Shown here: in pieces, positions 15,961-26,290 of the stretch
Position numbering within the stretch: the stretch's first letter is position 1
How the letters are laid out: each line of letters starts with the position of its first letter
Origin: Eledone cirrhosa
Taxonomy: Eukaryota
Direction of reading: 5' to 3'
DNA length: 64,000 nucleotides
Assembly (NCBI GenBank): GCA_964016885.1
Contig: OZ024757.1
Location: 15,624,001-15,688,000 of the forward strand
Notes under the pieces: model-generated
Databases searched by the model: none
What the model was told of the DNA's origin: nothing
Seen by the model: only the letters and a program-made list of their open reading frames with translations
Made by a program: the position numbers and the translations under genes

Positions 15961-16227
15961 GCAGAGGTTATATTTAATTTGTTGGGATTCAACAAGCTTA
16001 AATATTTTTATAACTGATATAAAGCACTCAACAGTTTAGTGGAGTAAACACTATCCAGGAAGCTCCAACCGTTAAGGTTGTCTTTTTTTCCGGGTTTGTC
16101 AATATTTATTTATAAAACAAATCTGTATTTTATCTGATGAAAGCGCACCATAATTTGCCTTGGTTGCCCTTGAAATATGTATAATAAAATAAATATGGTT
16201 TTATAAATATAGTTTCCATTTATTAAT
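15961..16227. mobile_element. Family K hammerhead element (minus-strand tail plus plus-strand ribozyme copy) between (TA)n runs
   Basis: Both halves are homologous to 23413-23818. Confidence 0.8.
16126..16191 (+). ncRNA. Type I hammerhead ribozyme (family K)
   Basis: UAUUUUAU-CUGAUGA-stem II (AAGCGCACCA/UGGUUGCCCUU)-GAAA-UAUGUA-UA/AUAAAAUA; 8-bp stem I. Confidence 0.85.
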
Positions 16228-16428
16228 ATATATATATATATATACCACAAATCCTCTATCTCAATTCTATAATTGAAAAGCATAAGAACTGTGAAACTGG
16301 TGAAGGAAACAAATAAATATTCTTAAAAAGACTCCAGTCGCATTTTCAATTTCTTTTCCTTATACTTTCACTCATGTAGGACATCTCGTTTCTTTATTTT
16401 CAAAAAAAAAAAAAACCTCATTTTCTTT

Positions 16429-16765
16429 CATCATCATCATCATTTTATATCCGCTTTTCCCTGCTTGGAAGGGTGGGACGGGAACTGATTCTGGCTTGAT
16501 TTCTACAGCTGGATGCCCTTCCTAACACCAACCTCATTTACAGTGAGTGCTGGGTGCTTTTTTGCCGTGGCACCTCCACGACCACTTTGCAGTGGAATGA
16601 TATGGACCCCAGTCCCTATCATCTCATTTCTACAGCTGAGTAAACTGGAGAAATGTGAAATAAAGTGTCTTGCTCAAGGAAACAACACATCACCTGGTCT
16701 GAGAATTGAACTCACAACCTTCCGATTGCAAGGCCAATGCTCTAACCACTAAGCCATGTGCCTCC
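16429..16765 (-). mobile_element. SINE-A
   Basis: Full-length copy. Confidence 0.9.
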
Positions 16766-16872
16766 ATTTATGTGCCTTTATTTATATATATACAACAATT
16801 CAAGTTTCAGCTGAAACTTGAACCATTAAGGTCTCATTCCTGGATATGTCAATATTTATAAAACAAACTTTG

Positions 16873-16934
16873 TATTTTATCTGATGAGAGCGTAACCAAA
16901 GTTCTGGTACCCTTGAAATATATATAATAGAATA
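16873..16934 (+). ncRNA. Type I hammerhead ribozyme (family K)
   Basis: UAUUUUAU-CUGAUGA-stem II (GAGCGUAACCA/UGGUACCCUU)-GAAA-UAUAUA-UA/AUAGAAUA; element spans 16799-16978 and starts with a 24-bp perfect palindrome. Confidence 0.85.
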
Positions 16935-17022
16935 AATATGGTTTTATAAATATAGTTTCCATTTATAAATATCATTGATATATATATATATATAAATGTA
17001 ATCTGAGTTTTTCAAATATTAA

Positions 17023-17203
17023 TAATTGTTTCTACGTTAGGCACAAGGCCAGCAAATACCCAGTGTATTACTGGTACTTTATTTTATCGACCCCGTAAGG
17101 ATGAAAGGCAAAGTTAACCACGGCGGGATTTGAACTCAGAATAGCAAGGGCTGTAACTCTATGCGTCAAAGCATGGCGTTCGACCCTCTACCAATCCACC
17201 GCC
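17023..17203 (-). mobile_element. SINE-B
   Basis: Same family as 8279-8470. Confidence 0.85.
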
Positions 17204-17621
17204 ATTTTCAAATATTTTCTGCTGAGTATACTGGAGCAATGTGAAATAAAGTGTTTTGTTGAAGAACACAACACACAACTCAGTCCAGGAATCAAACCCC
17301 CCCACAACAATATGATCTTAAGTCCAACACCCTTACCACTAGGCCACACACCTCCACAGAACCATCATTAACATATCTGATGAAATGTCATGAAGGATCT
17401 CTTCCAAAGCTCTGTGTTCTGAGTTCAAATCCTGCTGAGGTCAACTTTATCTTTCATCCTATTGGAGATCAATGAATAAAATACTACTCTAATGTGTTTA
17501 CAGTGGACCAAGATGTGTGTGTGTGTGCATGTGTTTCTGTATGTGATACATATATATAATTGCAAACGAATCATGTACTATTATTAATGAGTACCAGCAA
17601 TAGCTGGGGGGGGGGGGGGGG

Positions 17622-18328
17622 TTAACCCTGCAATGGACTGGCATCCTGTCCAGTGGGGAAGCCTTGTATTCTCGGTCACTTAATGCCATGTAAACTAGAA
17701 TAAGTACTGACCTGAGAATCCTCCGAGCTCAAAACAGACTTTAACCCTGCAATGGACTTATGTCTTGTTCAGGGGTAGTCTTGTATTCTTAGTTGCTTAA
17801 CACCATGGAAACTTCGGTAAGCACTGGCCTGATGAGCCTCTGTACTCAAGACAGACTTTAACCCTGCAATGGACTTATGTCTTGTTCAGGGGTAGTCTTG
17901 TATTCTTAGTTTCTTAACACCATGGAAACTGGGGTAAGCACCAGTCTGATGAACCTCCAGGCTCAAGACAGACTTTAACCCTGCAATGGACTTATGTCTT
18001 GTTCAGGGGTAGTCTTGTATTCTTAGTTGCTTAACACCATGGAAACTTCGGTAAGCACTGGCCTGATGAGCCTCTGTACTCAAGACAGACTTTAACCCTG
18101 CAATGGACTTATGTCTTGTTCAGGGGTAGTCTTGTATTCTTAGTTTCTTAACACCATGGAAACTGGGGTAAGCACCAGTCTGATGAACCTCCAGGCTCAA
18201 GACAGACTTTAACCCTGCAATGGACTTATGTCTTGTTCAGGGGTAGTCTTGTATTCTTAGTTGCTTAACACCATGGAAACTTCGGTAAGCACCAGCCTGA
18301 TGAACCTCCAGGCTCAAGACAGACTTTA
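17622..18328 (+). repeat. 117-bp tandem array from the SINE-M 3' half (one founder plus five copies, A-B-A-B-hybrid)
   Basis: TTAACCCTGCAATGGACT at 17622, 17741, 17858, 17975, 18092 and 18209. Confidence 0.9.
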
Positions 18329-23706: not shown

Positions 23707-23772
23707 TATTTTATCTGACGAAGGCATGCCATATTTTTAATATGGTATCCCTGAAATATGTATAATGAAATA
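23707..23772 (+). ncRNA. Type I hammerhead ribozyme (family K)
   Basis: UAUUUUAU-CUGACGA-14-position stem II (AGGCAUGCCAUAUU/AAUAUGGUAUCCCU)-GAAA-UAUGUA-UA/AUGAAAUA. Confidence 0.88.
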
Positions 23773-24884
23773 AATATGGTTTTATAAATATAGTTTCCAT
23801 TTGTTTAATATCGTATATATATATCTATATATGTACAGGTCTAAAAACACCTGATTTCTTATAGATGAGAGTAACAGAGAGGAAATCTAGAAAGAGATAT
23901 AGAGGAAGAATCAACTCCAGTACTGGACTGATCCTTTTAAATAAAAAAAAAATGAAGAGCTATGTTGACCTCTACGACATTTGAACTCAGAATACAGAAA
24001 GCCAGAATCAATACTGCAAAGCATTTTATCTGATGTTCTAGCAACTCTGCCAACTCACCACCCCCTACTGTGCTACAATTCCTACACGATGATAGAATTA
24101 GGGGCCTAATGTAATGAAAATCCCGAATCTACATATATCTAACTTTGCAATCAACAATTCTGCTTGCGGGTCTGAGGTTATGAGAGGTTTTAATTGGTTC
24201 TCTGATGGTGAGTAATAAATGGGAGTGCAATTATTGTCGATGGTCAGAGCAGTGTTACAACAACAACAAAAAAACCCCCAAGGGTGCGAAGTAAGAATCA
24301 ATAGCTATTTGTTGATTGTCATTTGATCAAACGAACCTTGTTGGTTGAGTAATGACAATTGTAGTTTTTATGGGTCCTCGGGGAATTACATTGCGTGAAT
24401 AATAGTAATAGATCTAGCCTTGATCATTGCAGACACGTTCCGCTGTGGGACAAATGGTAAAACATTATAGTTAAATTTAATGCAAAGCAGACTTTATGTA
24501 TGGGCTAGATTTGCAGAGAAGGATCTGTCTGTCTGTTTGCCTGCCTGCCTGCCTGCCTGTCTATCTATCCATACATACATCCATCCATCCATCCATATAT
24601 CTATCTATTTATCTATCTAACTGTTTGTCTGTTTGCCTGCCTGACTGTTCTATCTATCTTTACATCCATCCATACATCTATACATCTATCCATATATCTA
24701 TCTATCTATCTATATAACCATACATCCATCTATCTATTTATCTATCTATCTATCTATCTATCTATCCATACATCCAACCATATATCTATCTATCTATCTA
24801 CCTGCCTGTCTGTTTGTTTGCCTTTCAGTCTGCTTGCCTACCTGCCTACTTTCTTTTCTGTCTGTCTGTCTGTCTGTCTATCTT

Positions 24885-25270
24885 AACTGATTCTTTTTTT
24901 CAAATACCACTTTGGAAGAAGAGCCAGGATGGAGAGAGAGGTGCTGTACCCCAGCAAGTTTTATGAAAGGTAGGTGAAAGTGGCGAGAATGGCCCGAGTG
25001 AATGGGCCTTCTCTCTAAATCAGCCTGTAGGTTGACGAAGAGGAGGAGGAGAGGAAAGGAGTACAAACTCTTCGTACTCCTGGAGATGAGGGTTGCACAT
25101 TTTTTTTGGGGGGGAGTATGTGTTACCCATATAAAATGTCTCCCCTATTGGGGAAAATCGACTAATTTTTAAATTGCATTTGTGATAATATTTTACACGT
25201 TTTTATTGTATGTAAACTTCCCCTTTGTATTTGTCCCCTTCTTTTGTGCCCCTGTGGCTAATAAAGAAAC
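24885..25270 (+). mobile_element. Tx1/L1-like LINE 3' fragment inserted in a (TCTA/TCTG)n tract
   Basis: Homologous to 30535-31010; ends in GGCTAATAAAGAAA. Confidence 0.65.
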
Positions 25271-25464
25271 ATATCTTATCCATACATCCAACTATTTATC
25301 TATCTATCTACCTGTTTGCCTGTCTACCAATCAATACATTTATTTAATTGTCTATCATCTGCCCATCTATACCTATCTATCCATTCATCCAGCTATCTGT
25401 CTATCCATCTATCGATATATATATATCCACCTGTCTGTCTGTCCACCCCTCCATCCATCTGTAC

Positions 25465-25496
<32 letters not shown>

Positions 25497-25538
25497 GTTA
25501 GTCAGTCTATCAATCAAAATATATTACATATATGTATA

Positions 25539-25727
25539 AGGCGGTGGATTGGCAGTGTCGGTAGAAGGTCGGACGCTATGCTTTGACGCATAGAGTTACG
25601 GCCCTTGCCATTCTGAGTTCAAACCCCGCCGAGGTTAACTTTGCCTTTCATCCTTACGGGGTTGATAAAATAAAGTACCAGTAATGCACTGGGTAATTGG
25701 TGGCCTTGTGCCAAAAGTAGAAACAAA
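25539..25727 (+). mobile_element. SINE-B
   Basis: Full-length plus-strand copy. Confidence 0.85.
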
Positions 25728-25958
25728 TATATGTTACATACATGTGTGTCTATGTGTATATATACAGTATAATTCTATGTGTGTGTGTGTATCATAGGTG
25801 CAAGCATGGCCGTGTGGTTAAGGAGGTTAATTCCCAAGGTTCTGGCTTCAGTCCCATTGCATGATGAGACCTTCGGCAAGTGTTTTCTACTATGGCCTTG
25901 CATTGACCAATGACTTATGAGCAGAATTTGGTTGACAGAAACTGCAAAGGCCTATATA

Positions 25959-26290
25959 TGTAGAAGGTGAGTTTTATTGTAGTACAATAAAGCAATGCAG
26001 ATATCGGATAAGAAGCACTCTACAGTTTGTAGGACTCGAGTATACATAATATATAAGATCAAAAGATGGTTAAAAGAGTTCCTTCTATTTTATTATGCGC
26101 ATTTCAAACTTATTATGTTGATTTAAAACTGCACCATCCACAAGTGTTTTTTAACCTTCATATCATGTCTTCCTATTTTATCTGATGAAAACACAAATGT
26201 TATTGCATGATGATATTTGTTTTTGAAATGCGCATAATAAAATACATGGAACTCTTTTAACCATCTTTTGATATTATATATTATATATAT
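25959..26290. mobile_element. K-related fold-back element
   Basis: Arms ~26045-26109 and 26222-26285, tail on the left arm, (TA)n flanks. Confidence 0.8.
26174..26244 (+). ncRNA. Type I hammerhead ribozyme (K-related)
   Basis: UAUUUUAU-CUGAUGA-16-position stem II-GAAA-UGCGCA-UA/AUAAAAUA; stem III is the palindrome AUGCGCAU. Confidence 0.88.

Follow-up and report, generated by a model that had tools for sequence, protein, structure and literature searches.

The stretch analysed here (the window) comprises 64,000 nucleotides of the Eledone cirrhosa genome assembly (contig OZ024757.1, positions 15,624,001 to 15,688,000 of the forward strand) and contains four hammerhead ribozyme motifs, referred to below as c1 to c4 (Table 1). 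The original prediction placed hammerheads at 16126, 16873, 23707 and 26174, and all four type I motifs begin exactly there. In each motif, the 5' strand of stem I is followed by CUGANGA, stem II, GAAA, a 6-nt palindrome core, UA and the 3' strand of stem I. The catalytic core (CUGANGA, GAAA and UH, in type I order) is intact in all four copies at all 12 core positions and is surrounded in every copy by helices I, II and III, that is, core and helices alike are those of a type I hammerhead. The fourth copy represents a divergent subfamily, with 62-73% identity to c1-c3.

A pattern that fixes stem I, the core and stem III without demanding pairing in stem II had five matches in the window and none in 100 shuffles; c3 has a complete twin in inverted orientation, which accounts for the fifth match. 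A profile built from the copies and searched across the window detected no further full member, only a partial inverted copy of c4 at 26042-26108. Because the pattern ignores stem II pairing and the profile finds no other full member, the four copies are not a hand-picked set of sequences that happen to fold well. A descriptor match at 2454 on the minus strand was dropped, given that its stem I pairs at only 7 of 8 positions and that it is missing from a stricter search. Rfam yields no hammerhead at the gathering score in the whole window, nor any at E<=5 in 15900-27400, and c1-c4 fit no existing Rfam hammerhead family. The label 'K-type', which had been attached to these motifs, was not found for hammerhead ribozymes in the literature searched and is probably the original prediction's own term.

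The evidence for maintenance of the fold comes from stem II. This stem consists of 9 pairs in c1, 9 in c2, 13 in c3 and 15 in c4, in each case plus a mismatch at position 4, so that it spans 10-16 positions overall, and its basal pair (10.1-11.1) is A-U or G-U in c1-c4, not the usual G-C. The upper part of the stem is unalignable and was excluded from the covariation tests. In the six aligned pairs, both sides change in four and one side in two, and 24 of 24 cells pair, in agreement with the claim that stem II varies strongly in sequence and length and yet is paired in every copy. The differences within these six pairs consist of transitions throughout and could all have passed through G-U intermediates. 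Across all stems of the four-sequence alignment, 64 of 64 cells pair; slid registers pair at just 38-59%, and RNAalifold independently recovers identical stem I and stem II pairs. In a shuffle test (n=500), the covariation score was matched by 2 shuffles and the count of compensated pairs by 23. Because shuffles ignore kinship, we also computed an exact kinship-aware null, in which the parsimony changes of each branch are placed randomly on a paired ancestor, under three trees combined with four transition biases. With the 12-14 changes required in stem II, the probability of every pair remaining intact is 7e-7 to 6e-6 on the three trees when kappa is 2, and it reaches at most 7e-3 when only transitions are allowed. 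Thus, the covariation of stem II is real and beyond the neutral null. The same null gives p 0.06-0.25 for stem I and p 0.02-0.21 for the stem III self-dimer, values that are not low enough for either stem to count as evidence alone. Accordingly, the proposed selection on RNA structure holds for stem II but is not significant for stems I and III from four copies. Most likely, this structural selection concerns the source elements of the repeats rather than the four copies themselves.

Four public sequencing runs (X1, X5, X6 and X12) under three organism labels were placed on positions 15962-16225 of the window; the statements on read variants made here and below cover 40 of the 85 variant rows. 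Sequences matching the c1 region amount to 7,272, 14 and 57 contigs plus 30,160 raw reads, and the family of hammerhead repeats is clearly very large, or very high-copy, the read depth over the c1 region not being a copy number. Among the rows listed, the 12 core sites and the 2 sites of position 4 are free of variants. Stem I is variable at 2 of its 16 sites, in each case by A>G facing a U; stem II is variable at 1 of 6 sites in pairs 1-3, where a wobble results, and at 5 of 6 sites in pairs 5-7; and loop II is variable at 6 of 12 sites. In X12, the two sides of pair 6 vary at shares of 32.5% and 32.8%. Pair 5, which is G-C in c1, appears as A-U in record 21 of X6 and as G-U in record 13 of X5, judging from matching depths; on the same basis, the X6 contig with A-U at pair 5 spans the entire motif with both C residues of position 4 unchanged.

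Stem I comprises 8 bp in the four-sequence alignment, of which 6 are invariant and 2 show wobble changes. The 5' strand is UAUUUUAU in all four copies, whereas in the 3' strand c2 and c3 each differ by a single A>G, which yields U-G; the description of a shared stem I that changes only to G-U wobbles was therefore accurate. With 2 changes vs 12, stem I is less variable in sequence than stem II (binomial p 0.001), a hint of constraint that may go beyond pairing and possibly reflects a contact. However, AAUAAA is present within or beside the stem I 3' strand in all four copies, and this overlapping signal combined with an AT mutation bias can equally explain the conservation. Beyond an internal loop, stem I of c1 continues into a distal extension (Table 1), which is also found in c2 and c3 and adds 10-13 bp. 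The newt ribozyme is described as requiring an internally looped helix I extension (PMC6155905) and, by analogy, the extension seen here would be no weaker a candidate than position 4 for making a peripheral contact; its loop varies in the reads. In addition, the stem I 5' strand can pair alternatively with the U-GAAA-UA of the core (16126-16132 with 16171-16177), forming an inactive fold that is open to every copy and, in c2, is the minimum free energy (MFE) structure. This alternative fold may act as a switch or result from the high AU content.

Stem III is AUAUGUAU in c1 and c3, AUAUAUAU in c2 and AUGCGCAU in c4. As expected of a short palindromic stem III, it self-pairs at 8 of 8 positions in all four copies, with G-U involved in c1 and c3, where AUAUGUAU uses tandem U-G/G-U. 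Helix III has 2 bp in the monomer and 8 bp in the dimer, and hammerheads with a short palindromic stem III (1-2 bp) are reported to cleave as dimers (PMC4209133, PMC6765202). The original prediction held that stem III is palindromic or one CpG-decay step away from being so. The palindrome is borne out, but CpG decay is rejected: both arms of c3, which are nearly identical, carry AUAUGUAU together with an intact CpG in CUGACGA; the G/A site is divided family-wide (33-50% A in three runs); and AUAUGUAU self-pairs through G-U. No T>C row, which would restore the CpG, occurs at 16178 among the variant rows listed. The G/A site is a lineage state and not the result of decay after insertion.

The hammerheads are embedded in repeats that are truncated to 150-420 nt. 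A (TA)n stretch closes every copy. In c1, c3 and c4, the start is likewise formed by (TA)n or by a brief run of TA, after which an inverted tail about 85 nt long follows; in c2, no inverted tail was seen. In other copies, the read joints show the tail following the hammerhead segment directly, and thousands of joints, from 16033, 16046 or 16048 to 16221 or 16225, connect the tail with the 3' end on the opposite strand. Read depth declines toward the 5' side of the repeat. Craig et al. 2021 (PMC8557442) describe insertions of Penelope-like elements (PLEs) as truncated at the 5' end, accompanied by an inverted copy and a tail, and targeted to microsatellites, and the repeats in the window show 5'-truncated copies, an inverted partial copy, a tail and a microsatellite target, with c2 as the copy that has no inverted tail. 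With a probability of roughly 0.8, we interpret the motifs as complete type I folds with a compensated stem II within TA-microsatellite repeats, likely the 5'-truncated pseudo-LTR (pseudo long terminal repeat) tails of a high-copy PLE whose ribozyme would self-cleave as a dimer through stem III.

Table 1. Hammerhead motifs, parts of the surrounding repeats and other features of the window
Feature	Position	Strand	Details
c1, type I hammerhead	16126-16191	+	predicted cut after 16183; C-C at 16144/16168
c2, type I hammerhead	16873-16934	+	predicted cut after 16926; C-C at 16891/16911
c3, type I hammerhead	23707-23772	+	predicted cut after 23764; C-C at 23725/23749
c4, type I hammerhead	26174-26244	+	predicted cut after 26236; C-U at 26192/26221
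Distal stem I extension of c1, beyond internal loop	16107-16118 with 16198-16209 (16107-16209)	+	MFE and centroid
Inverted tail of c1, adjoining (TA)n	15961-16048	-	opposite-strand read joints; homology of the three tails
Inverted tail of c3	23413-23498	-	tail homology
Inverted arm of c3, including complete twin hammerhead (23546-23611)	23497-23633	-	136/137 identical to 23685-23821
Inverted tail of c4, divergent	25960-26040	-	profile match, partly by construction (tail in profile)
Inverted partial copy of c4 (GAAA, stem III, cut site, 3' end)	26041-26108	-	64/68 identical
Unrelated hammerhead, stem III AUGCGUAU	26697-26745	-	exact centre of fold-back 26606-26839
Minimal PLE-type hammerhead	27240-27275	+	extra A after core, G-C at stem II base, GAAA-CG-UU
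Three homogeneous tandem arrays resembling short interspersed elements (SINEs)	38721-40594, 42730-46950, 46990-49104		units 112, 132, 47 nt; 95-98% matches
tRNA-like Rfam matches	34832-34903, 1225-1290	-	probably SINE heads or repeat part

Under this interpretation, two pseudo-LTRs on one transcript of a source element would pair their 8-nt stem III palindromes and be cut after the AUA triplet. Selection in the source elements would have kept the core and the stems while the subfamilies diverged, the copies in the window being snapshots of that process, and we infer that the sequence differences among the copies are those of different source lineages. The copies themselves are a different matter. 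Only c1 and c2 form a close same-strand pair (747 nt apart), and folding of whole insertions gives stem I a pair probability of 0.53 in c1, 0.09 in c2 and 0.0 in c3 and c4, where it is lost to the inverted arm; according to the predictions, the inverted arms trap c3 and c4 in hairpins. Being mostly lone, with no close partner on the same strand, and in two cases hairpin-locked in the models, the four copies are likely to be inert, dead tail fragments.

Several observations weigh against the identification of the motifs as tails of a PLE with a dimeric ribozyme. With 21-nt flanks, other pairings are predicted to displace stem I in c2 and c3 (mean pair probability 0.10 in c2 and 0.02 in c3), and c4, folded on its own, is not more stable than its shuffles (z -0.72). 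The stem III duplexes of the AU-rich, AUAU-type forms are weak, with energies of -2.2 and -3.2 kcal/mol, compared to -10.5 kcal/mol for c4. In the reads, the shares disagree at pair 5 (20.6 vs 0.4%) and pair 6 (3.7 vs 0.5%) in X1 and at pair 5 in X12 (24.2 vs 2.9%), although the clipping of many reads inside stem II may hide changes of the partner and so might explain the disagreement. Finally, no PLE-type Pfam match (reverse transcriptase (RT) or GIY-YIG) was found in 274 of the 351 stop-to-stop frames of the window, the scan having left out the 77 frames of window positions 1-11848 and of the tandem block at 38.7-49.1 kb; a single Pfam match fell below the cut-off (PAP2_C, E 0.009). With no RT or GIY-YIG remnant in the frames scanned, PLE membership is argued from the architecture, and the clade may be Neptune, Hydra, Naiad or another.

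The ends of the repeats show some further resemblances. By eye, the tail (15961-16048) and the last 30 nt (16195-16225 and 26245-26275) are similar to the 5' start and 3' end of the octopus Naiad consensus, an AT-rich and unquantified lead. The octopus Naiad consensus sequences examined in the Craig 2021 supplement do not contain the present hammerhead, and their ends hold a different hammerhead-like arrangement; among the matches listed, six stem III-type motifs occur in that supplement at no hammerhead. A small hairpin (of the AACC-N5-GGU type) is located 5' of c1 (16067-16081) and of c2 (16821-16833), and variants of it are found in loose ends of X5 and X6.

The C-pyrimidine mismatch foreseen at position 4 of stem II, after 3 bp, is present in every copy, as C-C in c1-c3 and as C-U in c4. 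The mismatch may tentatively be viewed as a selected element, that is, a tertiary docking site for stem I, a metal site or a recognition mark for the protein of the element, although we consider the odds to be well short of even. It is kept in all four copies while the adjacent pairs changed at least 12 times, and it persists even though pairing at this position would stabilise stem II by 5.5-6.7 kcal/mol. Furthermore, no C>G place of at least 3% was found in X12, X5 and X6, and no variant row at 16144 or 16168 is among those listed; the sequence conservation of stem I, as a hint of constraint beyond pairing, and the protein-dependent cleavage reported for a PLE hammerhead in PMC11167929 are consistent with such a role. 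However, the retention does not exceed what the stem's own rate allows: with one change per site, the probability of at most 1 change over the two sites is 0.41 and, therefore, four copies are unable to show extra constraint at position 4. Repair of the mismatch requires C>G, which is the rarest change in the reads (1 place over 4 runs, in 264 nt with 36 C; this place is in X1, its location not given), and the conservation of stem I may stem from the overlapping AAUAAA and the AT mutation bias. Moreover, the mismatch is missing from the neighbouring hammerhead at 26745 and from a metagenomic hammerhead (L004, described below), both of which have a similar stem III. Most simply, the mismatch would be an inherited weak point of stem II that is tolerated or mildly favoured. 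A bolder proposal, for which we see only a slim chance, is that the mismatch, the sequence-fixed 8-bp stem I and the looped extension jointly replace the canonical loop-loop contact, serving as an RNA docking site or as the switch-on mark of the protein, and so make up an undescribed hammerhead architecture. A weaker possibility is that this hammerhead family belongs with the Naiads, which have been reported to lack canonical hammerheads, and was missed by published descriptors owing to its long, mismatched stem II.

Compensated stems could also be maintained for reasons other than cleavage, or for none. The fold might be selected as a binding or priming scaffold for a retroelement protein, with self-cleavage weak or dispensable, an idea that we regard as unlikely but worth keeping in mind: in the anole PLE, hammerhead mutants left insertion in vitro unaffected, no RNA-seq reads end at the cut site and cleavage required the protein (PMC11167929); PLE hammerheads are slow or poor cleavers in vitro (PMC4209133); and the base of stem II deviates here from G-C. 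Against this stand the intact core, in the copies and among the read variants listed, and the maintenance of the palindrome across three stem III sequences, and A-U at the base of stem II is also seen in PLE hammerheads of shrimp and Drosophila willistoni in the PMC4209133 supplement. It would take a rather improbable turn for the copies to be solo monomers of a non-LTR retrozyme (a circular RNA element) or sequences co-opted by the host. They are indeed non-coding and short and carry a type I hammerhead, and retrozymes, which occur as monomers, have been proposed to derive from PLE pseudo-LTRs (10.64898/2026.07.22.740005); yet the window contains no tandem array of a 200-400 nt hammerhead unit of the kind that marks a retrozyme, the copies are truncated and bear inverted tails, and nothing indicates conservation of these particular insertions. 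Least convincing of all is the notion of compensating changes that owe nothing to selection and are produced by correction of DNA hairpins (quasi-palindromes) or by a switch of template in the course of copying. The inverted arms make it clear that the elements are subject to fold-back events, and the copies are few (n=4) and related, but correction at the DNA level should erase G-T and C-C, whereas the G-U wobbles and the mismatch remain; the transitions of stem II all lie on the G-U path, with the G-U state of pair 5 inferred in X5; and the core is constant while the loops vary among the rows listed.

Besides c1-c4, the window contains other hammerheads and fold-backs. The two hammerheads at 26697-26745 and 27240-27275, both unrelated to c1-c4, had escaped the original prediction, as had the inverted twin of c3, the partial inverted copy of c4, the inverted tails, the distal part of stem I and the A-U or G-U pair at the stem II base. 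The arms of the fold-back at 26606-26839 prolong stem I of the unrelated hammerhead at its centre and are identical at 78 of 94 ungapped positions. The metagenomic locus L004, itself unrelated, has an equal hammerhead-in-fold-back layout at 2934-3106, with stem III AUACGCAU. This layout suggests that stem I may give rise to inverted PLE ends by snap-back priming; nothing on snap-back priming by stem I was found in the literature searched. The 3' flank of the minimal PLE-type hammerhead at 27240-27275 recurs at 35151-35232 on the minus strand. Further fold-backs are located at 378-583, 23203-23312, 34998-35137, 41041-41151, 41097-41710, 55538-55668 and 61199-61571; several adjoin (TA)n, and they are probably remnants of other PLE families or of families of miniature inverted-repeat transposable elements. 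At 17622-18328, a 117-nt tandem repeat with CUGAUGA and GAAAC half-motifs failed the hammerhead descriptors; we take it to resemble a SINE core domain and assume that the SINEs surrounding the hammerhead repeats are those of octopods. Outside the window, pattern scans of viral contigs gave no match in one case and one in another (L008, rejected as having no proper stem I), and scans of prokaryote genomes gave none. A metagenome scan gave 7 matches, of which 5, without a stem II, are due to chance; the remaining two, L004 and L006, apparently represent one locus found twice, a real but unrelated hammerhead with no open reading frame of PLE size.

Among type I hammerheads, Sm-alpha of Schistosoma, newt satellite 2 and the non-LTR retrozymes share the core and the type I topology with c1-c4 (PMC7229834, PMC6155905). 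Canonical type I hammerheads, as described in the same sources, also have an unstable stem III with a palindromic loop, a dimer model and a looped helix I extension in common with c1-c4. However, several of their traits are not found in c1-c4, namely, the 4-bp helix II with a loop, the 6-bp helix I, G10.1-C11.1 and the nucleotides of the loop 1-loop 2 contact. Moreover, c1-c4 are not arranged in tandem arrays, unlike the Sm-alpha, newt satellite 2 and retrozyme hammerheads.

The closest kind to c1-c4 is that of the PLE hammerheads with a small palindromic helix III, which PMC4209133 reports from Drosophila willistoni, Aedes, rotifers and shrimp. Common to both are the type I topology, an intact core, a short palindromic stem III, a stem II longer than the canonical one, AU-rich flanks and the occurrence mainly as single dispersed motifs in truncated copies; in the supplementary alignment of the same paper, moreover, some rows have A-U as the basal pair of stem II and lack the extra nucleotide after A9. 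The differences are that c1-c4 have a longer stem II (10-16 positions) with C-C or C-U after 3 bp, and an 8-bp stem I that continues for 10-13 bp beyond an internal loop. Among the alignment rows available, a mismatch at position 4 occurs in one (sea urchin), as C-A. With truncated PLE insertions, the repeats in the window share 5' truncation, an inverted partial copy, a tail at one end and a (TA)n target, but the tail of about 85 nt compares with 30-40 bp in the insertions described in PMC8557442 and by Frangieh et al. 2024 (PMC11167929).

In the literature searched, the coverage of which is incomplete, neither this family nor the conservation of C-Y at position 4 was found to have been described before. 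Hammerhead families full of compensatory changes are already cited in PMC4209133 and, given that PLE hammerheads, a palindromic stem III and compensatory variation within a genome are all in print, the main result is to be expected. What the present family adds is a very large set of natural variants of a hammerhead that is missed by Rfam, keeps its mismatch and lacks the canonical loop contact. The papers cited above leave open whether PLE hammerheads are maintained for the sake of cleavage or of protein binding, and this variant set would allow a direct test.

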